Of a stretch of DNA of 64,000 nucleotides, positions 5,103 through 54,922 are shown piece after piece. Each line of letters begins with the position of its first letter. The stretch's first letter is position 1. Under the pieces are notes generated by a model, which worked only from the letters and a program-made list of their open reading frames with translations, ran no database searches and was not told the DNA's origin. Origin of the DNA: a virus (lineage: Duplodnaviria > Caudoviricetes); the IMG/VR virus record IMGVR_UViG_3300033073_001448, positions 1-64,000 of that record, one strand, 5' to 3'. Made by a program: the position numbers and the translations under genes.

Positions 5103-5411
5103 ATGTCTATCAACATCGAGGCCTCTGCGCAGAGCACGCCTAAATCTCTTGATTCGCTTGAAGTAACGCCCTTGGTCATGCACCGTATTTTGGTAGAGCT
5201 TGTCAACACAGATCAATGGTATGCTGTGATGCGTGAGCTACGTGTTTGGTTCGGAAAAGACTGGCGAGGTCAACCTCGCGTGAAGCGCAAACTTGAACAC
5301 AATTGGGCAAAAGAAAAACAACAAGTTTGGTTTGAAGTGCCTGACCCTAGTTGTGCATCTTGGCTTGGAATTAAATTAGGTATCCAAGCACAGGTAAAAC
5401 CCAATAAATAA
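5103..5411 (+). CDS. hypothetical protein, possible divergent member of the FxL(R/K)W family
   Basis: RVWFGKDW...WFEVPDPSCASWLGIKL pattern. Confidence 0.65.
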   Translation: MSINIEASAQSTPKSLDSLEVTPLVMHRILVELVNTDQWYAVMRELRVWFGKDWRGQPRVKRKLEHNWAKEKQQVWFEVPDPSCASWLGIKLGIQAQVKPNK

Positions 5412-5417
5412 AGATCT

Positions 5418-6932
5418 ATGCTATTTGGTTTCGGAATATTAGCCACTGCTTTGTTGTTGAGCATGGTGGCTGCTTACTACTCGGTGGCTGGTTTGGTGGC
5501 CATTTTCTCAGCGGCCACTATTCCAGTGATTATCATGGGCGGAAGCCTAGAACTGGGTAAGATTGTAGCCACCGTGTGGTTGCACAATAACTGGCGGCGG
5601 GCAGGATGGGCGTTCAAAGCATACCTAGTGCCTGCTGTGGCATTCCTGATGTTACTGACCAGCATGGGCATCTTTGGTTACTTGAGTAAAGCACACTCTG
5701 ACCAAAGTCTTGTGTCTGGAGATGCCACTGCTAAGATTGCTATCTATGACGAGAAAATCAAGATAGAACGGGAGAACATAGATGCAAACCGTAAGGCGCT
5801 TAAACAACTTGACGAAGCAGTGGACCAAGTTATGGGCCGCTCAAGCGATGAAAAAGGTGCCGACAAAGCAGTTCAAATACGTCGCTCCCAACAGAAAGAG
5901 CGTGGTCGACTACTTGCAGAAATTGGGGAGAGTCAAAAAAGGATTACCGCACTTAACGAAGAACGAGCTCCGTTGGCGGCTGAGTACAGAAAAGTCGAAG
6001 CCGAAGTGGGCCCGATCAAGTATATTGCCGCCTTGGTCTATGGCGACGCTACTGACCAAAATGTACTCGAAAAGGCCGTTAGATTTGTAATCATAATGAT
6101 TGTGCTGGTATTTGATCCACTAGCACTAACACTTATTCTAGCAGCCAACAAACAGTTTGAGTGGGCACGTCGTGGCACCGGTGGCTGGGTACACGATGAA
6201 GAAAAATTGTCAGTACTACCAACACCACAGCCTGAACCTGAGCCAGTGCCTAAAGCAGAACAAGATCCGCATCCACCAGGGTGGATGTTCAATGATTTTC
6301 CATATCTTCGAGACGGATCTAAGATGTTTTTTCAAAACATCAAGCCCATGCCAGCAGTACCAGAGCCGCCCAATGATTACAAAGAACACTGGGAAGACAA
6401 AGAAACACAAGAACTAATACGAGAGTTAGAAACTGCGCCGATTCCAGATGTTGAACGACCCGGCGACTACGTAAACCCACCATTGTACGAAGAACAAGAA
6501 GATGATGAGTCTCCTGAGATGAAAGCCGCCAAGGCACGTTGGAAGGCCGAAAATCCACATGATACATTGAAGCATCAACGATTTTTACACGAACGCGGAT
6601 CTATTCCTGAACTTCCTTGGATGAAATACCTGCAAATAGAAGCAGACAATGTTCCAAAGATCAGCACAACTACAGGGTTTGGAATAGAGTTTCCCGGTAA
6701 TCCAAACAAAGGGGACAGTTTTGTAAGAGTAGATATGTTACCTACTCGTTTATACAAATATAACGGCAACGATTGGATGTCAGTTGACAAAAATCTTTCT
6801 GACAGTTATACTTACGATACAGCCTACATTGATCATTTGATTGCTAAAATCGAATCTGGTGAATATGATCCAGACATGTTGAGCGACAGCGAACGTGAGC
6901 AAGTAACTGCAAGATTACAAGGACCAAAATGA
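5418..6932 (+). CDS. membrane protein with coiled-coil domain
   Basis: N-terminal TM helices, coiled coil, further TM; preceded by TAAATA. Confidence 0.8.
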   Translation: MLFGFGILATALLLSMVAAYYSVAGLVAIFSAATIPVIIMGGSLELGKIVATVWLHNNWRRAGWAFKAYLVPAVAFLMLLTSMGIFGYLSKAHSDQSLVSGDATAKIAIYDEKIKIERENIDANRKALKQLDEAVDQVMGRSSDEKGADKAVQIRRSQQKERGRLLAEIGESQKRITALNEERAPLAAEYRKVEAEVGPIKYIAALVYGDATDQNVLEKAVRFVIIMIVLVFDPLALTLILAANKQFEWARRGTGGWVHDEEKLSVLPTPQPEPEPVPKAEQDPHPPGWMFNDFPYLRDGSKMFFQNIKPMPAVPEPPNDYKEHWEDKETQELIRELETAPIPDVERPGDYVNPPLYEEQEDDESPEMKAAKARWKAENPHDTLKHQRFLHERGSIPELPWMKYLQIEADNVPKISTTTGFGIEFPGNPNKGDSFVRVDMLPTRLYKYNGNDWMSVDKNLSDSYTYDTAYIDHLIAKIESGEYDPDMLSDSEREQVTARLQGPK

Positions 6933-8134
6933 AAAGCACAGAAAATCTAAACACCTGCAGTTTTTGTGGCAAGCACAAAGATGCTGTGGCCAAACTTATT
7001 GTGGGTGTGGACGTTGCAATATGCAATGAATGTGTAGAGCTTTGCGAGGATCTGCTGAAAAAAGATATTCCGCTGGCCAGTCAAGAACCTGCTACTACAT
7101 TGGATCCAGTAGATATCAAAGAACATCTAGATCAATATGTTATTGGCCAAGATGCGGCCAAGCGTGTGCTCAGTGTTGCAATTGCCAATCACTACAAACG
7201 TATAAACAACGTAGATATCAACACCGAAATTGAAAAAACCAATATTCTCATGTTAGGTCCCACTGGGTCAGGAAAAACCTTGTTGGCTCGTACAGTGGCT
7301 CGATATTTAGATGTTCCTTTTGTTATTGCCGATGCTACAAGTCTAACTGAAGCAGGCTATGTTGGCGACGATGTTGAAAGTTTGATTTCGAGACTGTATG
7401 CGGCTGCAAACTACAACGTGGAAAAAACACAGCGTGGTATTGTGTTCTTAGATGAAGTAGATAAAATTAGTCGTAGAAGCGAGTCAGCATCAATCACTCG
7501 CGACGTGTCTGGTGAAGGAGTACAGCAGGCCTTACTTAAACTAGTTGAAGGCACCAAGTGCAGAATTACTCCACAAGGCGGTCGCAAGCATCCTTCGGGA
7601 GAGACTGTGGAAATTGATACCACAAACATCTTGTTCATTGCCGGCGGAGCATTTGTGGGCTTAGAAAACATTGTAAAGAATCGAGTAAAAGGCACCAGTA
7701 TCGGCTTTGGTGCAAAAGTTGATACCAAAGATACTGTAGCACTGAGTGAAACTACCCCCGAAGATATTATTAAATTTGGTATGATTCCTGAGTTTGTGGG
7801 TCGCTTTGCTACCTGGGTTGCCTTGGAAGAACTTGGCAAGGCAGATCTTGTGAGAATCCTCAAAGATATCAAACACAGTTATGTAAGTCAATATACCTGG
7901 TTGTTTGAAAGAGACAATGTTGCACTGGATTTTAGTCCTGAGAGTCTGGATTTAATTGCTCAGAGAACCATTGCTAACAAAACAGGAGCTCGTGGTTTAC
8001 ACTCGGAACTAGAAAGAGTATTGTTGCCACACATGTTCTATATCAAACGCTACAAGAAGTCTGGTATTCAGCATATCAATATAGACGTAGATTTGGTAAA
8101 TACCCCAAGAACATTGCAGGAAATCAATGAATAA
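6929..8134 (+). CDS. clpX: ATP-dependent Clp protease ATPase subunit ClpX
   Basis: Zn finger [20 protein letters not shown] pore loop, DEVDK, RKH, IGF loop, GARGL. Confidence 0.97.
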
Positions 8135-8351
8135 ACTACGTGGAAGATCAGTGCTGGTACAAGATGGGAATGTTGACCGAGCACTACGTAAATTTAAAAA
8201 GAAAGTTCAAACCAGTGGTATCTTAGACGACCTAAGAGCCAAGGAATTTTTTGAAAAGCCTACCACAGAGAAGAAACGCAAACGAGGTGCAGCAGTAAAT
8301 CGTTGGCGTAAAAAATTAGCCTCTCAACAACTGCCTAAGAAATTGTACTGA
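8127..8351 (+). CDS. rpsU: 30S ribosomal protein bS21
   Basis: [12 protein letters not shown]...EFFEKPT..KKRK signature. Confidence 0.92.
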
Positions 8352-8617
8352 TGTATATTGAATTCCGTCTGCCCACTGGTGCAGGAGGAATGACTGCACA
8401 ATACACAAACTCAGTGTTAAATCACAACCTCCAGGAATGGAGTGATCGGTACAATATTCCTTACAATAAAAAAATACACAAATGGACTGTGCGTGTGACC
8501 TTTAACGACGATGCTCATTACAGTCTGTTTGCAATGACCTGGCAACCACAGTCAGAGCATCTACTGGATCATCTAAAAAATTATAAGTTTGTAGAGCCTA
8601 TGGCTCGACCGGAATAA
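8351..8617 (+). CDS. hypothetical protein, likely divergent FxL(R/K)W family member
   Basis: LQEWS...VTFNDDAHYSLFAMTW. Confidence 0.7.
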   Translation: MYIEFRLPTGAGGMTAQYTNSVLNHNLQEWSDRYNIPYNKKIHKWTVRVTFNDDAHYSLFAMTWQPQSEHLLDHLKNYKFVEPMARPE

Positions 8618-8792: not shown

Positions 8793-10716
<1,924 letters not shown>

Positions 10717-11318: not shown

Positions 11319-11630
11319 ATGGCACAAACTGAAACTAAACAAAAAATCAAACCCAACGAAGCCGTTAAAGAGCCACCACTGTTTAGAGTAATCTATATCA
11401 ACGACAATCAGACCACAGTTGAATTTGTTGTGGAAAGTTTGATTGAATTTTTTGATTATACACCAGAAACTGCTGAACAAATTACCGTTGACATTCATGA
11501 GTCAGGCAGTGCTGTGGTAGCAGTGTTACCGCATGAGATTGCAGAACAAAAAGGCACAGAAGTTCTTATGAGTGCTCGCTCACAAAACTATCCATTGCAA
11601 ATCAAACTTGAGCCTGAATCAGTACATTAA
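11319..11630 (+). CDS. clpS: Clp protease adaptor ClpS
   Basis: PPLFRVIYIND..T.EFVV, IHESGSAVV, EIAEQK, YPL. Confidence 0.92.
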   Translation: MAQTETKQKIKPNEAVKEPPLFRVIYINDNQTTVEFVVESLIEFFDYTPETAEQITVDIHESGSAVVAVLPHEIAEQKGTEVLMSARSQNYPLQIKLEPESVH

Positions 11631-20420: not shown

Positions 20421-20635
20421 TATCTTTTACTCCCGAACAAGACCAATACCTGCAACTGGCTCAAACTCGTGCTTACTATGATGGCGTGCGCGAAGGCGTG
20501 ACTATGTATGCCCACTGGAAAGATGGTGAGCAGTATGTGGGCACCACTGGTCGCACACTCAAAGAAGCCATTGAGCGAGTGAGCTTGGCCGAAGCCGATG
20601 TGCTGAGTCGTTTTCGCAACATGGCATTGATCTAA
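20417..20635 (+). CDS. hypothetical protein
   Basis: ATGA coupling; AHWKDGEQYVGTTG. Confidence 0.7.
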   Translation: MISFTPEQDQYLQLAQTRAYYDGVREGVTMYAHWKDGEQYVGTTGRTLKEAIERVSLAEADVLSRFRNMALI

Positions 20636-20880
20636 TGATGGCACGACCCGTTCATTTACCTTACCGAGCCTCTAACCCGCGAAGCATTCGTGGTGCAAAA
20701 AAACGTGGGTGGACTGTGGTTCGTGTTCGGAACAACTATTCAGAAACTACATCCTGGATGGGGTTGAATATTTGGTGTGAACGCGGGGTTGGTGGCTATT
20801 GGCTGTCAAGTTTTCATTATCGTGAATTTGCATTTGAAAATGGTCGAGATGCTACAATGTTCAAATTGAAATGGGGCTGA
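20635..20880 (+). CDS. FxL(R/K)W family small protein
   Basis: NIWCE...FAFENGRDATMFKLKWG. Confidence 0.8.
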   Translation: MMARPVHLPYRASNPRSIRGAKKRGWTVVRVRNNYSETTSWMGLNIWCERGVGGYWLSSFHYREFAFENGRDATMFKLKWG

Positions 20881-21994: not shown

Positions 21995-22801
21995 ATGTTC
22001 AAGTCATTATCAACTGTGGCTCTTGCGGCATCACTTGTTGCTTGTGCTAGCACTCAAAAGGCCGAAGTGGCACCTGCACCTGCACCTGCAATGGTCCCAC
22101 ACCCGTATGCCCTGCCAGCACAGCCGGCCCGAACAGTGGTGGCTGCCCCGGGTTGGTTTGTTAAAATGCCCGACAATACCGCAGACATGATCTTTGCTGT
22201 CGGAACTGCTACATCAACGGATGAACAAATGGCCTACGACAAAGCACGTATGGCTGCCGAACGCAAGTTGGTAGAGCAAATGTCCAGCCAAGTCCGTACT
22301 CAGACCAAGAGCTACAAAGTAGATACAGGCAATGCAGTTGCTGAACGTTTTGAGCAAACTGTACAAAAAACTGCCAATGGAGAATTGATTGGTGCTCAAC
22401 GTGTAGATGCTCAGGCAACATTTGACGGTCGTCAATACAAGGTCTATGTTTTGTTGCGATATCCTTTGGCAGAAAACAATGTTCTGCGTCGAGAGCGTGA
22501 ACAAGCCCGTGCTCAGCGCGAAACCGAACTGCGAGCCGCTCGAGCCCAGCAAGAACTTGATGCTACAATGACACAGCAACGTCAAGACCAAAAAGCCGAC
22601 GAGGCCCAGCAACGTCGCGATATTGGCCCTGTGCAACCGCAGAGTTCAGCACCGGCTACTATTCCCTATGCACCTACATCTGTGCCCACAGCAGACGGAG
22701 ACGTCAAACTGCTTCAAGTTGACAATGCAGAATATCAGCGTCGACGTGCAGAAGCTCTGGAAAAACCTGGTGCTGTGATTGGTAACACAACTGTTCGTTG
22801 A
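21995..22801 (+). CDS. LPP20-like lipoprotein
   Basis: Lipobox LVAC, PGWF, AVGTA, A.DKA...A...L. Confidence 0.75.
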   Translation: MFKSLSTVALAASLVACASTQKAEVAPAPAPAMVPHPYALPAQPARTVVAAPGWFVKMPDNTADMIFAVGTATSTDEQMAYDKARMAAERKLVEQMSSQVRTQTKSYKVDTGNAVAERFEQTVQKTANGELIGAQRVDAQATFDGRQYKVYVLLRYPLAENNVLRREREQARAQRETELRAARAQQELDATMTQQRQDQKADEAQQRRDIGPVQPQSSAPATIPYAPTSVPTADGDVKLLQVDNAEYQRRRAEALEKPGAVIGNTTVR

Positions 22802-22814
22802 CCAAAAACGGCGT

Positions 22815-22851
22815 ATAAATAAGTGCGGCCCTGTGCCGCACTTCTCTTTTT
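22815..22851 (+). promoter_or_regulatory. T4-like late promoter TATAAATA followed by a terminator-like hairpin
   Basis: TATAAATA then AAGTGCGGC-CCTGT-GCCGCACTT-CTCTTTTT. Confidence 0.65.
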
Positions 22852-22856
22852 CAACC

Positions 22857-23429
22857 ATGGCAGAAGAAACCAATACCAGTGATCTAAGTCACAGTCAAGC
22901 TCTTGCTGATGCAGGAATGTATGTTTTCATGGGCGATGTTGACCCCCAAAACATCAAACCCATCATTGAGTGGATTTTGCATGAAAATTATGTCACTAAG
23001 AAAAAACGAAAAGAACTGCTGTTGATGATTTGCAGTTCAGGCGGTGACATGGAAGCCGCTTTTGCACTGATAGATGTCATGCACAGTTCGGATATTTTTA
23101 TAAAGACTGTGGGGCTAGGGCAAATCGCTTCGGCAGGATTGATGATATTTTTAGCAGGGTCTCCGGGTCGAAGAGTGCTTACACCCAATACTTCAATCTT
23201 GAGTCATCAGTTTAGTTGGGGCTCAGATGGCAAAGCCCACGAACTGTTTGCCATACAAAAAGAATTCAGTCTCACACAAAAACGCATGTTAGAGCACTAC
23301 AAAACCACAACTGGTCTCAGCGCCGAAGAAATTCAAACTGCACTATTGCCACCACACGATGTTTGGTTATCGGCTGAAGAAGCATTGGCTTTGAATATCT
23401 GTGACGCTATCAGCGAAATCAAACGTTAA
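22857..23429 (+). CDS. ClpP-like protease (divergent paralog)
   Basis: ICSSGG, GQIASAG (Ser), LSHQ (His), HDVWLSAEEA (Asp). Confidence 0.88.
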   Translation: MAEETNTSDLSHSQALADAGMYVFMGDVDPQNIKPIIEWILHENYVTKKKRKELLLMICSSGGDMEAAFALIDVMHSSDIFIKTVGLGQIASAGLMIFLAGSPGRRVLTPNTSILSHQFSWGSDGKAHELFAIQKEFSLTQKRMLEHYKTTTGLSAEEIQTALLPPHDVWLSAEEALALNICDAISEIKR

Positions 23430-25018: not shown

Positions 25019-25069
25019 TGATTTTTTCCAACTTAGATGTTATACTTATGCTTTCTATCAGGAGTATAC

Positions 25070-25693
25070 ATGCCAAATTTAGTGCCTATCGTTATTGAAC
25101 ACAGTAGCAAAGGCGAGCGTAGTTACGATATCTACAGTCGCTTGCTCAAAGATCGAGTGATCATGCTAGATGGTGAAGTTGGATCACACAATGCCAGTTT
25201 GATTGTAGCTCAATTGTTGTTTCTCGAAGCCGAAAATCCAGACAAAGACATCAATTTGTATATCAACTCGCCCGGGGGGTCTGTCACAGCAGGCCTGGCA
25301 ATCTATGATACCATGCAGTTTATCAAGTGCGATGTGTCTACCATTGTGATTGGGCAGGCTGCTAGCATGGGCAGTTTCTTAGCACAGGCCGGAGCCCGGG
25401 GCAAACGTTTTGTGCTTCCAGAATCACGTACAATGATCCATCGTGTTAGTTCTGGTACTCCAGGAACTCGTGGCTCAGTTCATGTACAAGAACTTGAGTT
25501 TGAAGACGCACGACGTCACTTTGAAGAATCAAAACGTTTAAATAAACGTCTAACTGAGTTGTATGTTAAACACAACACAGCGGGCAAGACTTACGAAGAA
25601 CTGTTTGAGACCATGAAGTTTGATACATTCTTGTCCGCACAAGAAGCAGTGGATGCTGGCTTTGCCGACAAGGTTGTTGAAAAACGTGCCTAA
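25070..25693 (+). CDS. clpP: ATP-dependent Clp protease proteolytic subunit
   Basis: [40 protein letters not shown]. Confidence 0.96.
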
Positions 25694-26966
25694 CCAACAT
25701 ATATTTTGCAATACTCCGTGGTACGAACTACACATCTATTGGGATGGTAGTTTAGGTATCTGTTGTCAAGAGGATCATAAACTGTACTCTGGCAATGCCT
25801 ACAACATAGCCACCACAGGTATTGCAGAATGGTTTAATTCTGAACCAGTTAGAAATTTTCGACATCGCATACTAGGATCAAATCCTGTGAGTGAATGTGC
25901 TCGTTGCTATCGCGAAGAAACTGTTAACGGTGTGAGTCGTAGAATTCGTAGCAATCAAAAAAGTGCAATCTTTACTCAAGCATTTGATGCTAGTTTTGAG
26001 CAAAGCCCAGGACGGAAACACTTTGCAATATCTGGGCACACCAACACACAACCCATTGACATTCACATTGACCTAGGAAACTATTGCAATTTGGCTTGTA
26101 AGATGTGCAATGCACAAGCCAGTTCAACTATTGCAGTTCAAGAAGTCAAGTGGGGCATTGATTCGAGCAAACCTTATGTAGGATTAGATTGGACTCGCAA
26201 TCAGTTAGTATGGGACAGTTTCAAACAACAGTTACTGGATATTACTGGTCTCAACAATATCCACTTCATGGGCGGAGAGACGCTACTCACTGATCGATTC
26301 GAAGATCTAGTGGATTGGTTAATTGAGCATCGGCGATTTGAAGTTTGTTTGAGTTTTGTAACCAACGGCACAGTCTACAAGCCGGAATTAATGACTAAAT
26401 TGCAACGGTTTCGACGTGTGGGTATTGAAATCAGCATAGAGACTGTGGACCAACACAATGCCTATCAAAGACAAGGTACAGACACGTCTGTGGTATTGAC
26501 CAACATTGATCAATATTGCAAACTTGGTAATCCCATGGAAGTTTGTTTACGTCCAGCAGTGAGTGCATTGACCATTGGGTATCATGCTGGATTGATTGAA
26601 TATGCACTGGATAAAAAATTACCAATCAAAAGTTTGTTGGTCAACGAACCTAGATTTTTAGACGCTGAAATTTTGCCCCAGTTTGTGAAATTACAGTACC
26701 TGCAGACCTACGTGCCGCTGATTCACAAGCTGTCAACAGGCCACAGCAAAGATTACAATGCTATGGACCCAAATGAATTTCGGCGTAACTTGGCTCAGCA
26801 GGTTGAAATGTGTGTGAGTATTCTTTCAACGCCGCAGGCCCCGGACAGTGAAGCTCAACTTGCACTCATGGTTGATCACTGCCGCAAATGGGATCAAGTA
26901 TACAATTTAGATGCCCGACAATTGTATCCTGAATTAGATGACGTATGGGACCAGCATGCTTACTAA
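25686..26966 (+). CDS. radical SAM protein with N-terminal SPASM/twitch-like domain
   Basis: [27 protein letters not shown]. Confidence 0.88.
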
Positions 26967-27685: not shown

Positions 27686-27785
27686 GTATTACAAAAGTAT
27701 TACTTTTTTCTGAATATTTTTGGTTGACCCAAAATGCTCATTTTGCTATAATATACACATAGACACACAAAAGGAGCCTCAAATG
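27686..27785 (+). promoter_or_regulatory. GTANTAC dyad + early promoter + RBS cassette
   Basis: GTATTAC-4-GTATTAC, TTGACC-17-TATAAT, AAGGAG. Confidence 0.85.
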
Positions 27786-28037: not shown

Positions 28038-28121
28038 TACTTGAGTATTACATTTCGTGGTTGACCCAAAATGCCCGTTTTGCTATAATATAGACATACA
28101 GACACAAAGGAGCCCGAGATG
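28034..28121 (+). promoter_or_regulatory. GTANTAC dyad + early promoter + RBS cassette
   Basis: GTAATAC-TTGA-GTATTAC, TTGACC-17-TATAAT, AAGGAG; near copy of 27722-27785. Confidence 0.85.
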
Positions 28122-28816: not shown

Positions 28817-29169
28817 AATGGTTCGTTGAAACTACCCAGTGGAGCGATTCTACCGTCAACGGCATTTACCTGCTGGATGACTCCAAGAGCAAGATGTATG
28901 CGTATCGACCCAATGCCCGAGCACCAATCAAAACATTCAAAGCACCTATCAAAATTGATATTCGAGGACGAAAGTTTGCCGTCAATCCCACACAATACCG
29001 CACGACAGTCGAAGAAGAACAGCCCGAAGGTCGCGTATGGGAAGTTAAAGGAAGCAAGGGCGATGTCTACAAAGTTTCAGAAAGTGGTGGAAATTTCTCA
29101 TGCACATGCTCGGGGTTCAAGTTTCGGGGCAAATGTAAGCACGAAGAAAGTATTCGTCAAACGGTTTGA
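28813..29169 (+). CDS. SWIM zinc finger protein
   Basis: GSKG..Y.V...CTCSGFKFRGKCKH. Confidence 0.85.
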   Translation: MKWFVETTQWSDSTVNGIYLLDDSKSKMYAYRPNARAPIKTFKAPIKIDIRGRKFAVNPTQYRTTVEEEQPEGRVWEVKGSKGDVYKVSESGGNFSCTCSGFKFRGKCKHEESIRQTV

Positions 29170-29173
29170 CCGT

Positions 29174-29326
29174 GTGAGCATGGCGCAGTGGCAGGAAATG
29201 GCTGACTGGTGCTACAACAATCTCTACCATGGCGGTCACTATGAGCCTAACTGGCATCACGAGTGGCCCACTTTTTACTTCTGGGACGAACGGGAATATA
29301 CCTTGTTCTTGTTGAGGTGGTCATGA
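29174..29326 (+). CDS. FxL(R/K)W family small protein (start uncertain)
   Basis: MADWCY...FYFWDEREYTLFLLRWS. Confidence 0.7.
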   Translation: MSMAQWQEMADWCYNNLYHGGHYEPNWHHEWPTFYFWDEREYTLFLLRWS

Positions 29327-29544
29327 AAGATACAAAAATAGACATAGATGTTAACCTAAGACGTGCCGCATTAATTTGGGCACGGGAAACCTTTGGTATG
29401 CCAAAACCCCAAGGAGTCGGTTTCTGTGACATGCGCTGGTATCACCGTAGTTTTGCCTCAGTCAACGAACGCAATAAAACCATTGCACGATTTTATTTCA
29501 AGAATCCAGCAGACGCTACATTGTTTGCGTTGAGGTGGTCATGA
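29323..29544 (+). CDS. FxL(R/K)W family small protein
   Basis: LIWARETFG...FYFKNPADATLFALRWS. Confidence 0.8.
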   Translation: MKDTKIDIDVNLRRAALIWARETFGMPKPQGVGFCDMRWYHRSFASVNERNKTIARFYFKNPADATLFALRWS

Positions 29545-29795
29545 GATTAGAATTCAATCAAGGTGTCTCACAAGAGTGTATAGATTGGTTGTGGGCTAAT
29601 GTTGGGCAGGGCAATGTTCAGCCAAAGATAACTGGACCGTTGCGGACATTTTCTCCTTGCGATAACGATGCTTGGTTCTACGAGCGTGTGTTCATACCAA
29701 ACCCAGGAACATTTCGTGGTGAAGGCCGTAATGTGCCTACTATTACGGTAAAGGATCCAAAGATGGCCGTGATGTTCGCACTGAGGTGGGCATGA
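29541..29795 (+). CDS. FxL(R/K)W family small protein
   Basis: IDWLWANVG...VKDPKMAVMFALRWA. Confidence 0.8.
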   Translation: MRLEFNQGVSQECIDWLWANVGQGNVQPKITGPLRTFSPCDNDAWFYERVFIPNPGTFRGEGRNVPTITVKDPKMAVMFALRWA

Positions 29796-30019
29796 AAAAC
29801 GAATTCAATCAATGGTATGTGGCAACTGTATCGCCGCCGCCATATCCTTCTGGGGTATATCATGGATGGACTCCTTGTATGGATTGGTGCAGAACTGCGT
29901 TTGGTGGCGATCCTGCCGCACCTATAACCGTTGGTGCTGGCTGGCGATATCTTTCCGAAGGGGTGTTTGAGTTTGAACGTGAGTTAGATAGAACTGCATT
30001 TTTACTGAGGTGGTCATGA
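29792..30019 (+). CDS. FxL(R/K)W family small protein
   Basis: MDWCRTAFG...FEFERELDRTAFLLRWS. Confidence 0.8.
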   Translation: MKNEFNQWYVATVSPPPYPSGVYHGWTPCMDWCRTAFGGDPAAPITVGAGWRYLSEGVFEFERELDRTAFLLRWS

Positions 30020-32913: not shown

Positions 32914-34188
32914 ATGAAGTATATCTCTGCTCTTGTTACAACTTTGGTATTAACTGCCTGTGGTGGCGGGGGCGGGGCCTCTAGCGGATCAAACGGTCCT
33001 GCGTTAGCCGGCTTGGCCTACTCTAATGTTGGTGCAGTTTTGGTGCCAGGAAAATTCGGGCCCGACCAAAGCCAGTATGTAATATCTTCTTCGATTAGAT
33101 ATCTAGGCAACGGTCAAACTGAGCCAGGCCCGGTAAAAGTTTTCAAATTGGCTAGTACTGGATTGTTGACAGATCAAACTGTGGAAATTCTAGGTGGTGC
33201 TGTTTCAGCATTTACCAACGTGCCCATAGTAACTGATTTCAATCATGACGGCATCGACGACATATTTTTACCAGGATTCACTGACACCCAGGATCTTGTG
33301 GGCAGTATTGCATTTATCAGTCGCAGTGGACAAAGTCATATCAAAGTAACTCTTCCTGATCCAGTTTGGGCGCATGGTGCAGCCGCAGTTGACATCAATA
33401 ATGATGGACATACAGATGTGATCAGTAGCCAAGGTCATGCATGGATCAATGATGGACAAGGTAACTTTAATTTTCGTGCTCACAGTTATAATGATGTTCC
33501 TGGATTATGGATGCATGGATCAGGCGTGTGCGCCGGTGACTTTAATAACACAGGACGTCCACAATTGGTTTTTACTGACTTGAACAATGATGGAAACAAA
33601 GCCCCTATTGCCGACACAGTGATTTTTGAAATTGACCATCAAGGGTTACCTACAGTACAACACACTCTTCCTGTGCCCATTCTAGACAGGGTCACCGCCA
33701 CTGAAACCAGTCATGATGTGGCATGCAAGGTTGCAGATTTAAACAATGATGGACTGCTAGACATTGTGGTATTGAGTCGTCCTTGGGCCTCGACTGGCCA
33801 GTCGTGGTCCAATCAAGGTCAGGCTCAAATCTTAATAAACCGTGGAAATTGGCAATTTGATGATGTTACAGATACTGCTTTAGCAGGATTTAATACCAAT
33901 GTGCTGATTAGTTATGCTCCATTGGTGCTCGACCTAAACGGAGACGGCAAACTTGATCTGTGGTTTGGATATTTTGATTATGACACTGGACAAGCCAATC
34001 AAGTGTTTTTAAACAACGGTAGTGGTATTTTTACCAAGGTGGCGTCGGACATGGTCAATGGGTTTGTGGCCTCTGGCGGAATGATTCCTGTAGCAGTTAA
34101 CAACCGATGGGCATTGGTATACGCTAAAATGAATACATCAAACAAAACCACAACCTTTTATGTCACTGAATCAATCTATAACTTTTAG
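32914..34188 (+). CDS. FG-GAP/VCBS repeat lipoprotein
   Basis: Lipobox LTAC-GGGGG; repeats DFNHDGIDD, DINNDGHTD, DLNNDGLLD, DLNGDGKLD. Confidence 0.88.
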   Translation: MKYISALVTTLVLTACGGGGGASSGSNGPALAGLAYSNVGAVLVPGKFGPDQSQYVISSSIRYLGNGQTEPGPVKVFKLASTGLLTDQTVEILGGAVSAFTNVPIVTDFNHDGIDDIFLPGFTDTQDLVGSIAFISRSGQSHIKVTLPDPVWAHGAAAVDINNDGHTDVISSQGHAWINDGQGNFNFRAHSYNDVPGLWMHGSGVCAGDFNNTGRPQLVFTDLNNDGNKAPIADTVIFEIDHQGLPTVQHTLPVPILDRVTATETSHDVACKVADLNNDGLLDIVVLSRPWASTGQSWSNQGQAQILINRGNWQFDDVTDTALAGFNTNVLISYAPLVLDLNGDGKLDLWFGYFDYDTGQANQVFLNNGSGIFTKVASDMVNGFVASGGMIPVAVNNRWALVYAKMNTSNKTTTFYVTESIYNF

Positions 34189-37441: not shown

Positions 37442-38152
37442 ATGAACACTATGATCGCGAATATGAAAGAACTTTCAACCTTTGACGACTTTGATTGGTT
37501 AGACTCTACATCCAAACGGCCGCCACGTGAAATTGCATTTTCGGATGATCCAGTGGCTTTGGCAGTGGCCAGTCATCGACTGTGGATCGAAGGTGGCCCG
37601 CGCTGGTGCGAACTGGACAAAATGAAGCCTACAGATCAAGATCGTACCACTGCACAACAACTGCGCGGTTACTATCGACAGCGCATGGTCATGGAAAAAC
37701 TCAAACAAACCACTGGGGTAGAAACCAGCAGTTTTAGAAAAAAACTGGGACAGTTGGTCACTGATCAACTCTGCATTACCTCAGACGAAGTTGGTATGCT
37801 GATGCGATTGCCGTATTTTTACGCCGAGGATCAAGCAGTGGATCAGGTCATGTCTAATACCGAGTCAGCACAGTTACATCTACGGGGCCAACCCTATACC
37901 GGTGAGTTCACTTTGGTTCAGCGTGTGTTGCGTAGCCGCCGTAGTGGTGAGTATTATGATTATTGGCTTACTGACGGTGCAAGCCCAACTGCTCACAGGT
38001 TTGTCATGAAAACTGACAATCCTTTGCGTCAATTCATGGAAACTTACATGGATCAAAAATTCCAGGCTCGGGTGTTGATCTACACACAGCCCATGCGCGG
38101 TTTTTGGCGCGGCCGAAATGTGTATCAGGTGGCGTTCGTTGGGGTAGCATAA
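37442..38152 (+). CDS. hypothetical protein
   Basis: Long ORF in operon. Confidence 0.7.
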   Translation: MNTMIANMKELSTFDDFDWLDSTSKRPPREIAFSDDPVALAVASHRLWIEGGPRWCELDKMKPTDQDRTTAQQLRGYYRQRMVMEKLKQTTGVETSSFRKKLGQLVTDQLCITSDEVGMLMRLPYFYAEDQAVDQVMSNTESAQLHLRGQPYTGEFTLVQRVLRSRRSGEYYDYWLTDGASPTAHRFVMKTDNPLRQFMETYMDQKFQARVLIYTQPMRGFWRGRNVYQVAFVGVA

Positions 38153-38370
38153 TGCATCCTGTGGTAGTTCTGCACGTCAACGCTGTGAGAGCTTTGGAAC
38201 TACGAGATCAAGTTTTGAGTCATGGATTAATACAAGATCGAGATTTTGTCTGGGAGTACACACAGGCCTCTTATGACAATGATGGGTATACCGCAGTAAC
38301 TCCGCGTCAAGTCAAGTTTAAATTTGTGGATCCAGCCATGGCCACATTTTTCAATCTTAAATGGAGGTAA
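38152..38370 (+). CDS. FxL(R/K)W family small protein
   Basis: FKFVDPAMATFFNLKWR. Confidence 0.75.
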   Translation: MHPVVVLHVNAVRALELRDQVLSHGLIQDRDFVWEYTQASYDNDGYTAVTPRQVKFKFVDPAMATFFNLKWR

Positions 38371-38377
38371 GTAGAAG

Positions 38378-39178
38378 ATGTCAAAGATACTTGCTATTTT
38401 ACTGTTTGTCATGGCTTTTTCAACACAGGCGCATGAAAGCATTTTGGTCTACAACGTATCACAAAATGTTATAGAAATGCAACGCAACGCCGATGCTATT
38501 CGTCCTATTGCATCAATCACTAAACTTATGACTGCTATCACTACTTTGGACTGGGACAAAGACCTAAGTCGTAAATTGTTATTGAGTGGTCGAGCCGGTA
38601 GCCATTTACCTCGTCAATCTTACAATCGCTATCAACTGTTGATGGCCATGCTGATTCGTTCAGACAATGCTGCCGCTGAAACATTGGCTGAAGATTATCC
38701 CGGCGGACGAGAAGCATTTATTGAGACTATGAATCGCAAAGCCAAAGACTGGGGCATGACTCACACTCATTTTGCCGACGCATCAGGACTCAGTGCCAGC
38801 AATGTTTCAACTGCACGAGATGTTATGAATTTAGTTGAAACTGCTTCGGGTTATTGGCTTATACAAGAAGCAAGCAAGCAGAAACAAATTGCACTGGAAA
38901 CCAAAGCAAAGAAAAAAGTCAGAACTATCGGACTGTCACATACTTCGGGACCGTTATTGTTTGTGTTTGATCAAGTCACTGTGAGCAAGACTGGACTTAC
39001 TTCGGCAGCAGGTTGGTGTGTAGGAATGATGGCCCAACAAAACGGGCAGTCGTACATTGTTGTGGTTTTGGGATCCAAAACCAAACAACAACGATTTGAC
39101 ACAGTCAAAGACATACGATATAATCATTTCACTGATAAAAATTTATTCGATACACCATTACCTAATAATTATAGATAA
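38378..39178 (+). CDS. peptidase S11 (D-Ala-D-Ala carboxy/endopeptidase, PbpG-like)
   Basis: Signal peptide, SITK (SxxK), SDN, KTG. Confidence 0.9.
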   Translation: MSKILAILLFVMAFSTQAHESILVYNVSQNVIEMQRNADAIRPIASITKLMTAITTLDWDKDLSRKLLLSGRAGSHLPRQSYNRYQLLMAMLIRSDNAAAETLAEDYPGGREAFIETMNRKAKDWGMTHTHFADASGLSASNVSTARDVMNLVETASGYWLIQEASKQKQIALETKAKKKVRTIGLSHTSGPLLFVFDQVTVSKTGLTSAAGWCVGMMAQQNGQSYIVVVLGSKTKQQRFDTVKDIRYNHFTDKNLFDTPLPNNYR

Positions 39179-39408
39179 TGCAACTCGAATCATATCAGAT
39201 TAGAGACAAAGAATCCTTTGCTTACGCCAAAGAAATTGCTAAACCTTTTGGTCAATTAGATGTAATTATTGATTGGTGCAGAACGGAACTTTCTGGTGAG
39301 TGGCGCTGGCAGTTGATCCGCACATCCACAGACCGCGAACCTGGCCGCTACATTTTTTACTTTGACTCTGACCGTGATTGCTGTGCGTTTACATTGAAGT
39401 GGCAGTAA
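39178..39408 (+). CDS. FxL(R/K)W family small protein
   Basis: IDWCR...FYFDSDRDCCAFTLKWQ. Confidence 0.8.
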   Translation: MQLESYQIRDKESFAYAKEIAKPFGQLDVIIDWCRTELSGEWRWQLIRTSTDREPGRYIFYFDSDRDCCAFTLKWQ

Positions 39409-47029: not shown

Positions 47030-48493
47030 ATGCACCTAAAATGTCTTGACAACGCAGGTCGAACCGCAGATGTTGTGTTGATCACAACACCTTGGGTTAA
47101 CACTAACTTGCCGTTGATGGCCCCTGCTTCTTTGAAGCCTGCCATTGAAATGGCAGGCTATTCTTCTTTTTGTACCGATCTAAATGGTGAGGTCTATAAT
47201 CTTCTACAACAGCACCCGTACCGAGAACAGGTGTTGGAATTTTTCTTTGCAGGCACCACGTGTGACAAGATCAAAGATTGGGTTGAAGATTTTATGAACA
47301 GCACTGTAGATCAAATTTTGCAATTTAATCCAAAGTTTGTTGGTCTGAGCTTGTTTACCTATGCGTCACGGAGTGCCTGTTTTTGGATTTGTGAAAAAAT
47401 AAAGCAACGTCAGCCCGAGATCAAAATCATAGTTGGCGGCGCTGGTTGCTTGGAGTCTTTCACTGGTCCAGGAATATTTGCTGAAGAAATGATAGCTCTA
47501 GGGTTGGTAGATTATCATATACGAGGCGATGGTGAACATGCATTGACTCAGTTACTGTTGGGCAACGATCGGTATCCGGGCATCAACAGCCCAACATGGA
47601 AAGAAATTACCAACGAAGAACTACATCAACTTCCTTGGCCTAATTACGACGATTATGATTTTTCGCAATACGAACGCAAAGTAATTGGTATACACGGCAG
47701 TCGCGGATGTGTGCGAGCTTGTACATTTTGTGACTACATTGAAAATTGGACCAAGTTTCAGTGGCGCACCGCCGAAAGCATATTTGAAGAAATGAAAACG
47801 CAGTACAAAAAATATGGCATGCGTTACTTTAAATTCAACGATACACTGACCAATGGCAATCTCAAAGAATTCAACAAGTTGATTAAATTATTGGCCGACC
47901 ACAACATAGCCAATCCCAACGATCGTTTGCATTGGGGCGGTTACTATATTTTTAGAGAACAGTCAGCCAACGATGACGAAATGTGGAATACTATCAAACA
48001 ATCAGGAGCTTCGTTTTTGGTAGTAGGCATTGAGAATCTCAATGAGGAGATTAGATACCATATTGGCAAAAAGTTCAGCAATGCCAGTATTGATTATCAT
48101 CTTGCCCAGGCCAAAAAACATCGCATAGGCATGCTATTGTTGTTTATTGTGGGCTATGTTACTGAAACTCAGCAACACATTGACTTTAGTAAAAAGTGGC
48201 TAGAGGATCATGTTGAGTTCAAAGATTCTATTCAACTACATTGGGACCAAACCTTGGCTATCTTTCCCAATACGCATTTGCATCGCAACAAAGACCAGTT
48301 AGGCATTAAACTAGGAACCAACCCTCACCTTTGGATCAACATTGAGACTGGGTCCGATCAATCTACCCGCGCTCAATGGATACAAGAGTTAGTAGACAAA
48401 AGTCGAGAGTTAGGCTATAACATCTTAGACAAGGTTGACAATCACTATTATTTAGAGCAGAAATTAAGTGCATTGTCTATGAAAAATCTGTAA
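47030..48493 (+). CDS. B12-binding-domain radical SAM enzyme
   Basis: IIVGGAG, GDGE, SRGCVRACTFC, GIE, IVGY.TE. Confidence 0.88.
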   Translation: MHLKCLDNAGRTADVVLITTPWVNTNLPLMAPASLKPAIEMAGYSSFCTDLNGEVYNLLQQHPYREQVLEFFFAGTTCDKIKDWVEDFMNSTVDQILQFNPKFVGLSLFTYASRSACFWICEKIKQRQPEIKIIVGGAGCLESFTGPGIFAEEMIALGLVDYHIRGDGEHALTQLLLGNDRYPGINSPTWKEITNEELHQLPWPNYDDYDFSQYERKVIGIHGSRGCVRACTFCDYIENWTKFQWRTAESIFEEMKTQYKKYGMRYFKFNDTLTNGNLKEFNKLIKLLADHNIANPNDRLHWGGYYIFREQSANDDEMWNTIKQSGASFLVVGIENLNEEIRYHIGKKFSNASIDYHLAQAKKHRIGMLLLFIVGYVTETQQHIDFSKKWLEDHVEFKDSIQLHWDQTLAIFPNTHLHRNKDQLGIKLGTNPHLWINIETGSDQSTRAQWIQELVDKSRELGYNILDKVDNHYYLEQKLSALSMKNL

Positions 48494-49177: not shown

Positions 49178-49426
49178 ATGCCTTTACCATGTTATCGTGC
49201 AGTGGAACCACTGTACATTGTAATTTTTAGAAACAACCCACAGGCTGAATCTCGATTACGGTCCTGGATCAAGGACCACCGTGTGGAACATGCAGTGGTT
49301 CAAGGTAACAAGATGATGCTCCATCACCAGCAGGCCCTGGATCGATTTATGATTACCTGGCGAGACAACTGGGAATCAATCACAATTTGGGACACTTGGA
49401 ATCGCAAGCACATCTACGTGGCTTGA
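49178..49426 (+). CDS. hypothetical protein
   Basis: TAAATA upstream; RSWIK...DRFMITW weakly resembles the FxL(R/K)W family. Confidence 0.65.
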   Translation: MPLPCYRAVEPLYIVIFRNNPQAESRLRSWIKDHRVEHAVVQGNKMMLHHQQALDRFMITWRDNWESITIWDTWNRKHIYVA

Positions 49427-52169: not shown

Positions 52170-52206
52170 GTATTACATTGACCAATAATCCTATATTTGC
52201 TATAAT
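52170..52206 (+). promoter_or_regulatory. GTATTAC site + sigma70 promoter, leaderless start
   Basis: TTGACC-17-TATAAT, ATG 6 nt downstream. Confidence 0.8.
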
Positions 52207-52440: not shown

Positions 52441-52832
52441 CAATGCATCTTTGTGGCCCTGCCCTGAGTCTCAACGGCAAGAAAAAAGGCAAAGTCAAGT
52501 TCCGCAACGCCGAAGAGGCTCGCAAGGCACGTGAGCTTGCGGCCGACTGGGAGAAACTTAAAACTAAATGGGCTGTGCCCGCAAAGGAGAAACGTGTGGG
52601 CAAAATTTTTGAACCCTTACACACTGGTGGTTATCGTTTGACTGCGCCGCCCGGTCGCACTACCTCTCGCGACTTGCCCAGCCGTGTCACAGAAGGCCAT
52701 TCCACTGCGGCCGTACACAAGGTCTATACCGGCGACAAAGTTCTTGGCATTGCTACCATGCACAAGTCAAATGCTGTGCCTGTATTTGCACAGGAAGAGG
52801 CTGTGGAAATTTCCAAGATGCGTCGTGGCTAA
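52437..52832 (+). CDS. conserved phage basic protein
   Basis: YTG...GIATMHKSNAVPV...ISKMRR. Confidence 0.8.
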   Translation: MTMHLCGPALSLNGKKKGKVKFRNAEEARKARELAADWEKLKTKWAVPAKEKRVGKIFEPLHTGGYRLTAPPGRTTSRDLPSRVTEGHSTAAVHKVYTGDKVLGIATMHKSNAVPVFAQEEAVEISKMRRG

Positions 52833-53037
52833 ACCGCATTTTATTGTGGCTGACCCAGAGATAGCTCGTAGTCTTGGTCAACCTGTGATTGTGATGTTGA
52901 GCGACATTGCATTTTGGAACATAAATTATGATTCATTGCATGAATGGTGTCGGCAAAATCACAGTGAAGTGCAAGGTATGACTGTGAATATCCCCGACGA
53001 TGTCACACTCACTGCATTTTGTTTGAGGTGGGCATGA
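52825..53037 (+). CDS. FxL(R/K)W family small protein
   Basis: HEWCR...IPDDVTLTAFCLRWA. Confidence 0.75.
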   Translation: MAKPHFIVADPEIARSLGQPVIVMLSDIAFWNINYDSLHEWCRQNHSEVQGMTVNIPDDVTLTAFCLRWA

Positions 53038-53270
53038 TCGAAATTACATTGAACAATCAACTCTGTGATCGAGTGCTATATTATGAAACTGGATTCGAAC
53101 AACTGCATCCTTTGCCTGAAATTCATTGCTGGATGGATCAGCGTGGCCAAACCTACCAACAAGATTGGCATGTCAAGCGTGTAAACCACACCATGTATCA
53201 ACGCAGTCATTACATGTTGGTTATCAACAACGACCAAATAGCAACTGAATTTGTACTACGCTGGCTATGA
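53034..53270 (+). CDS. FxL(R/K)W family small protein
   Basis: HCWMD...INNDQIATEFVLRWL. Confidence 0.8.
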   Translation: MIEITLNNQLCDRVLYYETGFEQLHPLPEIHCWMDQRGQTYQQDWHVKRVNHTMYQRSHYMLVINNDQIATEFVLRWL

Positions 53271-53485
53271 TAAAATATCACTATCCCTGGCCTGAGCAGG
53301 CACCTACACTAAAGGTTCCAGTGTTACACCGTGTGAACTTTTCGGGTTATCGTTTTGCAGAAATGCGTGAGTGGTTGGAAGCCAACTGTAGGGCACCATA
53401 CTACACCAGTCCAGGATGGACCGGCAACTTTGTTGAGTTTGAAGACGACCAGGATGCCACTGCATTTGCACTGAGGTGGTCATGA
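53267..53485 (+). CDS. FxL(R/K)W family small protein
   Basis: REWLE...EFEDDQDATAFALRWS. Confidence 0.8.
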   Translation: MIKYHYPWPEQAPTLKVPVLHRVNFSGYRFAEMREWLEANCRAPYYTSPGWTGNFVEFEDDQDATAFALRWS

Positions 53486-53706
53486 TCTTAGCCACAGTCA
53501 AACTGTATCATCCGAAACAACAAAATCGTTGGGTTGACGAAAGCCCTATCAATGTGTGGCTGTTGGCCAATGTTGGTGTTCATGCCCGCTATAGAGATTT
53601 AGTAGACGAATCAAGACCGTGGCATGTGGATCATGAAAGAGATTATCTTGTGTATCACTTTGCTCGTGAGCGCGATGCCACAGCGTTTGCACTGAAGTTT
53701 GCATGA
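53482..53706 (+). CDS. FxL(R/K)W family small protein
   Basis: NVWLLANVG...HFARERDATAFALKFA. Confidence 0.8.
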   Translation: MILATVKLYHPKQQNRWVDESPINVWLLANVGVHARYRDLVDESRPWHVDHERDYLVYHFARERDATAFALKFA

Positions 53707-53924
53707 ATCCACTGTTGGTTCACGAAGTTGTAATCTACAACGATGATTGGTACAAGGCAGAAGCTTGGTGCGAGCAAAACATTGGGCAATTTAATATCAC
53801 ATGGTATAAACTTGGTATTGATCCGTTGGAGATGATGATGCGTTCCCCAGGAGCCAAAACCAAGACAGTTTGGTATTTCCTCCGCGAACAAGACGCAACA
53901 ATGTTTAAACTAAAATGGACGTGA
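53703..53924 (+). CDS. FxL(R/K)W family small protein
   Basis: EAWCEQNIG...YFLREQDATMFKLKWT. Confidence 0.8.
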   Translation: MNPLLVHEVVIYNDDWYKAEAWCEQNIGQFNITWYKLGIDPLEMMMRSPGAKTKTVWYFLREQDATMFKLKWT

Positions 53925-54136
53925 TGGGTACCAAAACATTTGCTGAAAAGGGCAGAGTTCGACTGGTGGGTGACGAAAGAGATGTCGCTGTGGTTTCAAA
54001 CTATCGCGAAGATGTATGGGCATGGTGCGATGCCAACAACATCGAGGTGGAATATCAAGGAACTTTGGCCAAAGTAGATCTCTGGCGTATTCGCAATGAG
54101 CAACAACGTGTGGCATTTTTATTAAAATGGAGTTAG
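53915..54136 (+). CDS. FxL(R/K)W family small protein (start 53915 or 53924)
   Basis: WAWCD...RIRNEQQRVAFLLKWS. Confidence 0.8.
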   Translation: MDVMGTKTFAEKGRVRLVGDERDVAVVSNYREDVWAWCDANNIEVEYQGTLAKVDLWRIRNEQQRVAFLLKWS

Positions 54137-54378
54137 ATATCAGCGAAGGCTCAGTGTATGGTGCAAGGTACTATACTGTGCGCCCAATGTTTCCAGCACA
54201 TGCGCCAACTTGGTTTAGGCAAGAATGGGATGATATGCTACAATGGTGTGTTAGTACATTCGGTCCCACACCTGAAGATGGTGTATGGACACCTGGTGCT
54301 CGCTGGTATGTCAACAATTCTAAGTTTTGGTTTCGAAATGAGCAAGATCGCTCTTGGTTTGTATTAAGGTGGACATGA
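54127..54378 (+). CDS. FxL(R/K)W family small protein
   Basis: LQWCVSTFG...WFRNEQDRSWFVLRWT. Confidence 0.8.
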   Translation: MELDISEGSVYGARYYTVRPMFPAHAPTWFRQEWDDMLQWCVSTFGPTPEDGVWTPGARWYVNNSKFWFRNEQDRSWFVLRWT

Positions 54379-54623
54379 TGCCGGAACGATTTTGTGTACC
54401 GATTACCTATGGCAACTTTGGTGAAAAGTGGCCCACATACTTTGAAAACTTTTTTCGACATTGCAATGAAATAGCCGAAGCCAATGGCTGGATGCCTATT
54501 ACCGTGATGAACCATCAACTAAAACCCTATGGAGGCAAACTGATTATGACCAAAACACAAGGATGGTATCTGCGATGGGACACCGAATCTGCACAAACGG
54601 CGTTTGTACTGAAATGGAATTAA
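54375..54623 (+). CDS. FxL(R/K)W family small protein
   Basis: RWDTESAQTAFVLKWN. Confidence 0.8.
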   Translation: MMPERFCVPITYGNFGEKWPTYFENFFRHCNEIAEANGWMPITVMNHQLKPYGGKLIMTKTQGWYLRWDTESAQTAFVLKWN

Positions 54624-54625
54624 TT

Positions 54626-54922
54626 ATGTCAGGATTTCAATCAAAGCGCATGATAACAACCCATGGACGAGGAATGGGCAAATCAGTTTGGGCCAATATG
54701 ATTAGAGAACTAACAATGCCAGATGTAAAAGTTTTGGACAGTGCCGACGTTGACGGAAAAACATGGTATACAGTACAATTGAGTATGCCTGCCAGGGAGT
54801 GGCTACGGGAACAACCTACAGAAGATTGGCATGAGCACATTGATCAACGATATTACGTAAATCAAAGTATGTTTGACATAAGTGAACAGATGTATTCAGC
54901 ACTGACATTAAAATGGAGTTGA
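54626..54922 (+). CDS. FxL(R/K)W family small protein (start 54614 or 54626)
   Basis: REWLRE...FDISEQMYSALTLKWS. Confidence 0.75.
   Translation: MSGFQSKRMITTHGRGMGKSVWANMIRELTMPDVKVLDSADVDGKTWYTVQLSMPAREWLREQPTEDWHEHIDQRYYVNQSMFDISEQMYSALTLKWS

Follow-up and report, generated by a model that had tools for sequence, protein, structure and literature searches.

Translationally coupled genes meet in ATGA or TGATG overlaps, with the Shine-Dalgarno sequence lying inside the upstream coding sequence. Poxvirus ankyrin-repeat proteins carry a C-terminal F-box-like (PRANC) motif; we know of no cullin/Skp1-type partner in bacteria. The closest setting among phages is the plastic regions of T4-type genomes, where, according to the published account, small non-essential genes stand behind strong early promoters and are shuffled between close relatives, and where PeSL promoter/stem-loop cassettes occur (Arbiol et al. 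2010, PMC2839356). Here we describe a family of small proteins that end in the tail F-x-L-[RK]-W and are encoded in the first 64 kb of a 91,992-bp viral record (IMG/VR IMGVR_UViG_3300033073_001448; Duplodnaviria, Caudoviricetes). This whole stretch of 64,000 nucleotides is called the window throughout. As in the T4-type hyperplastic regions (PMC2839356), small open reading frames (ORFs) of unknown function are densely packed behind repeated strong sigma70-like promoters, and close relatives differ by insertion, deletion or replacement of whole genes. We read the 16 members in the window as old paralogs of a phage-only family that share a scaffold, are expressed early and serve as a repertoire of small binders for different host targets, and we put the probability of this reading at roughly 55%.

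Members were sought across the whole record with the tail regular expression [FLYWIM]-x-[LIVMF]-[RK]-[WFY]-x-stop, applied to stop-to-stop ORFs of at least 40 amino acids. The expression matches exactly 16 ORFs (70–98 amino acids), all on the + strand and all within the window; on the − strand it matches none of 589. These F-x-L-[RK]-W-x-stop ORFs are laid out as a run of nine consecutive genes (52825-54922), a run of four (29063-30019) and three singles (20635, 38152, 39178), the same count and arrangement that an initial annotation of the window had proposed from the DNA letters. The four-gene array of that annotation is real, but its first start, judged by the N-terminus shared with an 87-residue ortholog (P0001), is 29063 and not 29174. 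The members and one borderline case are as follows.

52825..53037, + strand: member 1; tail CLRWA, junction TGAGGTGGGCATGA; the GTG start is uncertain, with 52846 as the alternative
53034..53270, + strand: member 2; tail VLRWL, with the sole tail Arg encoded by CGC
53267..53485, + strand: member 3; tail ALRWS, junction TGAGGTGGTCATGA; modelled as beta-alpha-beta-beta-alpha
53482..53706, + strand: member 4; tail ALKFA, with the W replaced by F
53703..53924, + strand: member 5; tail KLKWT
53924..54136, + strand: member 6; start at 53924 or 53915; tail LLKWS, with the ATG of the next gene inside its AAATGG
54127..54378, + strand: member 7; tail VLRWT; modelled as beta-beta-alpha-beta-beta-alpha
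54378..54623, + strand: member 8; start at 54378 or 54375; tail VLKWN; the most divergent body
54626..54922, + strand: member 9; 98 amino acids with an N-terminal extension; tail TLKWS, with the ATG of the unrelated gene 54913 inside its AAATGG
29063-29326, 29323-29544, 29541-29795 and 29792-30019, + strand: four-gene array, each gene ending TGAGGTGG(T/G)CATGA
20635..20880, + strand: single; tail KLKWG; basic, with an isoelectric point (pI) of 10.7
38152..38370, + strand: single; tail NLKWR; its end, TGGAGGTAA, gives GGAGGT 9 nt before the ATG of a DD-carboxypeptidase gene (38378)
39178..39408, + strand: single; tail TLKWQ, followed by a promoter-like site instead of a coupled gene
8351..8617, + strand: borderline member; a strand and a D-D-A-x-x-x-L-F-A-M-T-W helix motif, E 0.013-0.05

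On the evidence of alignment and profiles, the sixteen ORFs are homologous to one another. Their alignment has a mean column identity of 22% and retains a skeleton made of a W..WC helix, an F-x-F strand and a D-A-T-x-F-x-L-[RK]-W helix; the initial annotation had described just such a shared skeleton with a highly divergent remainder, and had suggested building a profile from the 16 sequences. That hidden Markov model (HMM; A1) separates all 16 from the remaining ORFs, with members at E 1e-11 to 1e-23 (values that are circular, being those of its own training set) and the next best ORF at 0.05. A second HMM drawn mostly from unrelated database representatives (A3) recovers 13 members at E ≤ 0.001 and two at 0.0012–0.0026, and gives the last, member 8 (ORF 54342-54623), E = 0.48. 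Among the weaker candidates of the initial annotation, 8351-8617 and 5103-5411 are borderline (E 0.01–0.06) and 49178-49426 is undetected by both HMMs. The borderline protein 8351-8617 continues for about 23 residues after its helix motif (…L-F-A-M-T-W-Q), a rare case of the domain standing away from the extreme C-terminus. The last gene of the four-gene array is joined by ATGA to an unrelated + strand ORF that begins at 30016 and has a hydrophobic, signal-peptide-like N-terminus (M-K-Y-L-I-A-F-L-L-S-V).

The family extends far beyond the window. The profile of the 16 paralogs has 457 matches in a 90%-clustered database, all labelled 'hypothetical' and none with a Pfam domain, and reaches 1117 clusters at 50% identity (E ≤ 0.001). 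Among the 150 clusters listed, the proteins are 57–144 amino acids long with a match that reaches the extreme C-terminus, and 124 end exactly one residue past [RK][WFY]. An ortholog alignment (A2) was used as the query for related viral loci, and the best 80 of 193 loci were used for the counts of members, tails and neighbours given here. These loci contain 451 members (361 non-redundant), all co-oriented and reaching 27 per 20 kb. Copy numbers in related phages, a count that the initial annotation had called for, are 3, 28, 30 and 35 in four complete genomes of 346–374 kb. A subfamily of about 100 amino acids ending ...EIVDEKKY-x-I-F-L-L-K-F-Q recurs in L058-L088 (for example L063:6780-7094 (+) and L069:3666-3968 (+)); its proteins keep the tail together with the strand before it, and the profile does not catch them. 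Searches for named relatives were negative. Ten window members have nothing below E 0.1 in Pfam or 0.017 in PHROG, among 99 diverse members there is no PHROG match and no Pfam family turns up twice, and the family profile reaches a best E of 1.2 against PDB sequences, with no related solved chain. Among 50,697 phage records, neither megablast of the array nor tblastn of member 54127 and the best representative gave a hit. By profile, no member was detected in a cultured giant Vibrio phage of 349 kb with which the GroEL is shared, no relative was found in bacterial and archaeal species genomes, and the literature searches made turned up no description of such a family. By copy counts and database searches, the family is large, phage-only and so far unnamed; the tandem expansion, phage specificity and want of an assigned function that the initial annotation had put forward are thereby supported, and its check for a characterised domain family turned up no Pfam, PHROG or PDB match.

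We predicted structures of two members with AlphaFold2. The model of member 54127, computed with 48 homologs, has a predicted local distance difference test (pLDDT) score of 88.7 and consists of strands 2–10 and 13–21, a helix at 32–45, strands 60–62 and 67–69, and a helix at 72–82 of 83 residues, the last helix having the highest confidence (pLDDT 93–96). The model of member 53267, computed with 99 diverse homologs, has a pLDDT of 78.8 and consists of a strand at 21–24, a helix at 30–40, strands 45–47 and 55–58, and a helix at 61–71 of 72 residues. A shared fold, which the initial annotation had proposed checking by structure prediction, is seen in both: the models place a common beta-alpha-beta-beta-alpha core of about 55 residues in the family, sometimes with N-terminal additions. 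In each model the closing turns of the final helix are made up of F-x-L-[RK]-W. The nearly invariant alignment columns fall in the first helix (W36), the two strands (W51, F58) and the last helix (F67, L69, W71); beyond an acidic helix cap and the R/K, no polar or catalytic-looking position is conserved. Since the tail closes the last helix and is conserved along with three further aromatics, it looks like a part of the fold core rather than an appended docking peptide, and we infer that its F, L and W sit in the hydrophobic core with the three other invariant aromatics. A helical wheel places Ala(-9), F(-6) and W(-2) on one face. The initial annotation had likened the tail to a C-terminal F-box, that is, a separable docking motif; this finds no support in either model, since in both the tail belongs to the final helix of a compact domain. 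Its broader idea of an adaptor architecture with a constant tail stands insofar as there is one homologous family with a constant skeleton, but falls short in that the tail is co-conserved with W36, W51 and F58.

Structure comparisons gave no named relative. A Foldseek search against the PDB returned nothing with E below 0.6. The best VIA-align hits have Z 5.9 (model 1, an ACT domain) and Z 5.7 (model 2, 1tua); these are generic alpha/beta sandwiches below the noise level, which is stated as 7–8. Structure searches of BFVD and the ESM Atlas found only uncharacterised proteins of uncultured phages. A homodimer prediction for two copies of member 54127 with its alignment scored 0.01, a value obtained without controls.

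The DNA that encodes the tail is constrained in its own right. The tail Arg codon is AGG in 8 of 9 cases, compared with 3.2% of Arg codons in 84 long genes (p about 1e-11), and AGG makes up 4.9% of Arg codons within the bodies of the family. In the recurring joint yTG-AGG-TGG-(T/G)CA-TGA, the TGA stop overlaps an ATG, and GAGG lies 5 nt ahead of that ATG. Nine of the 16 window members end in ATGA, and the overlap of stop and start is 1–4 nt. Paired with the 3' tail of 16S rRNA, assumed to be of E. coli type, the L-R-W-S joint forms a 9-bp duplex of -15.8 kcal/mol; the value for AAGGAG is -9.3. Tails of the K type have AAATGG, which contains the start codon of the following gene (54127 and 54913); orthologs of the 54127 gene keep its M-E-L N-terminus. 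At 38370, a TGG-AGG-TAA tail yields GGAGGT for the next gene. The same pattern is found in the relatives, where 131 of the 217 Arg codons in tails are AGG, ATGA closes 171 of the 361 members, the two features are associated (odds ratio 3.5, p = 5e-6), and the commonest joint is TGAGGTGGTCATGA. With stop and start overlapping and a Shine-Dalgarno sequence inside the upstream gene, the arrays qualify by their sequence as translationally coupled overlapping chains.

Selection also appears to act on the encoded peptide. Synonymous codons vary at the tail F (TTT/TTC) and L (TTG/CTG/CTA/TTA/CTT), and the W is retained both in K-type tails that form no Shine-Dalgarno site and in 39178-39408, which has no coupled downstream gene; the tail is therefore under protein-level selection as well. 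Codon usage and conservation thus indicate that one 14-mer is constrained at both the protein and the nucleotide level. The fixed ending, the preference for R over K and the S or A as last residue can largely be accounted for by the nucleotide-level role (Shine-Dalgarno, stop and start), which explains them better than a docking function does. Recent gene conversion was considered as the source of tail identity and rejected, since the F and L codons differ among members.

Related loci differ from the window by whole genes. The syntenic locus L094 has flanking genes of 53–79% identity and only three of the nine array members (orthologs of 52825, 53267 and 54626), and its 53267 ortholog is joined straight to the 54626 ortholog via TGAGGTGGTCATGA; in the window, 54626 follows a K-type joint. 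L006 and L007 have the 53267 ortholog directly followed by the ortholog of the unrelated gene 54913. The layouts in L094 and in L006 and L007 therefore indicate that whole genes are gained or lost exactly at joints. Orthologs of member 1 occur in L094, L006 and L092, and those of member 3 are 69–85% identical to it. Conservation is widest for member 7 (193 related viral loci in IMG/VR), with orthologs of 83–107 amino acids at 57–77% identity; member 2 has no ortholog in the 80 related loci. The window paralogs share at most 35% identity with one another over alignments of at least 57 residues, 15 of the 16 have their own orthologs elsewhere at 42–72% identity, and by this divergence the paralogs are old. 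Amino-acid identity between orthologs is 44–79%, a divergence at which synonymous rates would be saturated. Gain and loss at joints, old paralogs and ordinary divergence together point to a stable repertoire with distinct specificities and presence/absence variation, not to freshly duplicating arms-race copies.

A strong candidate promoter precedes the nine-gene array.

52178..52206, + strand: predicted sigma70-type promoter ahead of the nine-gene-array operon; TTGACC, 17-nt spacer, TG-n-TATAAT; 11 of 12 consensus matches

Similar predicted promoters lie ahead of other members at 28061, 20079 and 39096. The window has about 20 near-consensus TTGACn-N16-18-TAnAAT sites between 4881 and 54779, many with GGTTGACC, a 17-nt spacer and TGCTATAAT with an extended -10 element. 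Promoter-like sites such as those at 27724, 28061, 42653, 45220, 46048, 48611 and 52178 resemble the early-promoter cassettes of T4-type plastic regions. Terminator-like sites in the 51–58 kb region are no more numerous than expected from shuffled sequence. In a T4-type hyperplastic region with PeSL cassettes, such promoters would be paired with stem-loop terminators around small ORFs, and recombination would take place between the cassettes; the gene gain and loss seen here fall at coding joints. The promoters suggest early transcription by the host RNA polymerase.

The record is 27% complete by CheckV, implying a genome of about 340 kb. The major capsid protein of the complete relatives (346–374 kb; terminal repeats in two) is of the T4 Gp23 type (E ~1e-98), and the window phage is therefore an uncultured giant T4-type phage. 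To judge by their sample names, close relatives probably come from lake metagenomes. Nearly every gene of the window lies on the + strand, and a search of the window for tRNA genes found none. The ClpX-like, ClpP, ClpS and GroEL genes named in the initial annotation are present.

6929-8134: ClpX-like ATPase
9073-10716: GroEL
11367-11603: ClpS
22779-23429 and 25037-25693: two ClpP homologs, one divergent (E = 3e-25) and one canonical (E = 3e-64)

Besides other Clp genes, the complete relatives have a ClpA/B-like protein of about 765 amino acids. The window also encodes a DNA ligase, UvdE, UDP-glucose dehydrogenase, an ATP-grasp enzyme, a DD-carboxypeptidase, NAD synthase, a cell-wall hydrolase and a superoxide dismutase. 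Two radical-SAM proteins are encoded at 25620-26966 and 47030-48493 on the + strand, the first or second of which carries a SPASM domain and the other a B12-binding domain, and an FG-GAP repeat protein at 32914-34188. Across the 80 related loci, the only named conserved neighbours of the family are a UvsW-like helicase and an Rv2179c-like exonuclease, which are uninformative as a functional lead.

In the mechanism that we propose, the host RNA polymerase would transcribe the genes early from the upstream sigma70-type promoters, and the members would be translated as coupled chains via their tail joints. Each member would then bind its own host target, in takeover or counter-defence, on a common scaffold, much like the numerous small early proteins of T4-type plastic regions. 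That scaffold would be a small single domain, the beta-alpha-beta-beta-alpha fold of about 55 residues, with the tail as one of its structural elements. Several points weigh against this reading. The burial of the tail W, F and L is deduced from helix position, model confidence and co-conservation. On the helical wheel F and W point roughly away from L(-4) and the hydrophobic -7 position, and one portion of the tail might therefore be a conserved patch on the surface. The divergence of family orthologs (44–73% identity) is similar to that of adjacent genes (40–83%), and there is thus no sign of an exceptional arms race. Early transcription by the host enzyme is predicted from consensus promoters. 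Lastly, the related loci contain 102 further tail-bearing ORFs on the + strand that the HMM misses, compared with 4 on the − strand; the tail and the preceding strand are thus kept more widely than the body, a pattern that fits the constant tail proposed in the initial annotation better than it fits our reading.

These last ORFs are the best point in favour of an adaptor library, in which the tail would dock all members on one partner (ClpX/ClpP/ClpS or GroEL) while the body recruits host targets. That explanation, which we consider distinctly unlikely, would also account for a constant C-terminal element on very divergent bodies, and it draws on the possible exposed patch of a last helix that is hydrophobic on more than one face. 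The phage encodes candidate partners in its ClpX-like protein, ClpS, two ClpP proteins and GroEL, and Clp proteins occur in all four complete relatives; the Clp genes are there, however, whether a genome has 3 copies of the family or 35, so their co-occurrence does not discriminate. Many family contigs look like ordinary-sized T4-type fragments, with the helicase and the exonuclease rather than Clp genes as neighbours. Against docking, the tail helix belongs to the fold itself and is co-conserved with core aromatics of other elements, and its fixed ending and its R and S preferences have an explanation at the nucleotide level. Carried to its extreme, the nucleotide-level role would make the tail a DNA/RNA joint for coupling and recombination that is stamped on unrelated small genes with no common fold or function. 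The AGG bias, the ATGA overlaps and the whole-gene gain and loss at joints would all follow, yet homology extends over about 55–70 residues (profile positions 13–82 align), the same core appears in two models of good confidence, F and L codons vary, the W is kept where there is no Shine-Dalgarno sequence, and the uncoupled single 39178-39408 keeps its tail; we regard this extreme form as highly improbable. A more speculative elaboration, unlikely but in keeping with a host-directed library, treats the genes as plug-in cassettes. The 14-base joint would then encode part of the protein core, provide the ribosome-binding site, the stop and the start, and serve as the point of crossover; the library, of counter-defence proteins for instance, would be reshuffled gene by gene, and fusions that mimic capsid protein would serve as decoys or modulators for capsid-sensing host systems.

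Such fusions are found in the relatives and bear on a further explanation, that the members act in head assembly or are packaged and injected. L090:851-1270 (-) and L092:997-1407 (-), from the complete relatives G002 and G003, have an N-terminal stretch of 35–46 residues that is 41–47% identical to residues ~54–104 of their own Gp23-type capsid protein, and L092:2825-3298 (-) has a stretch resembling positions 124–193 of the Gp23 Pfam model, a weak match (E = 7e-4) below the family cut-off. The equivalent stretch of T4 gp23 includes the Gol-peptide region, and the fusions could be assembly modulators or decoys. A neighbour cluster in the Atlas likewise has Pfam Gp23 on 13% of its members. Against a general role in the capsid, none of the 16 window members has a capsid segment, a Gp23 search of the whole record gave no match, and the genes stand behind early-type promoters among non-structural genes; we consider such a role very unlikely. 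The members might instead be small regulators with an alpha/beta fold, KH-like or similar, that bind nucleic acid by means of the basic residue and the Trp of the tail. KH-type domains are the best neighbours of the second model, and an R/K is conserved beside the W, but the Z scores of 4.0–5.7 are under the 7–8 noise level. A type I KH domain is beta-alpha-alpha-beta-beta-alpha with a GXXG loop between its two helices; DSSP assigns a single helix to the stretch from the first strand to the hairpin in both models, and with Z at most 5.7 we do not assign the family to this class. The spread of pI from 5.0 to 10.7, with most members acidic or neutral, argues against a uniform role of this kind, which we hold to be highly unlikely.

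A repertoire of small binders on one scaffold would give some order to a poorly described part of giant phage genomes. Giant phages carry hundreds of unnamed small early genes, and in this one environmental T4-type lineage as many as about 35 per genome, a considerable fraction, belong to one family. The family offers an annotation handle, namely a new domain family with a defined profile, a predictable fold and a grammar of gene chains. It would also provide a clean natural example of a short sequence selected at the protein and translation-signal levels together, and well-defined candidates to be screened for host takeover or counter-defence.

Among known protein folds, the members bear a weak structural likeness to two-layer alpha/beta sandwiches (DCoH/PCD, ACT, KH-like, secretin N), with no sequence relation to solved chains. 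DCoH/PCD proteins are beta-beta-alpha-beta-beta-alpha sandwiches that form dimers or tetramers through the sheet; member 54127 has the same order of elements and aligns to 1uso with Z 5.5 over 62 residues (root-mean-square deviation 2.8), within noise. Like the PRANC proteins, it is a viral family that has expanded and that combines a conserved C-terminal element with a variable remainder. It differs from them in having no ankyrin repeats and no Pfam match, and in that the conserved element belongs to a single small alpha/beta domain and is not a separate module. An F-box/PRANC-type adaptor joins a repeat domain to a distinct helical module at the C-terminus, which binds a subunit of a ubiquitin ligase; it was accordingly set aside as a classification, there being no repeat domain but a single compact domain with the tail as its last helix. 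As in other coupled genes, the final codons of the upstream gene hold the Shine-Dalgarno sequence, and stop and start overlap; unlike the usual case, the joint recurs throughout a family and its relatives and coincides with a conserved structural peptide, L-R-W-S. Set against the PeSL regions (PMC2839356), the window differs in that many of its small genes are one protein family, and in that the boundaries of gain and loss fall in the coding stop/start joint and not in intergenic promoter/terminator cassettes.

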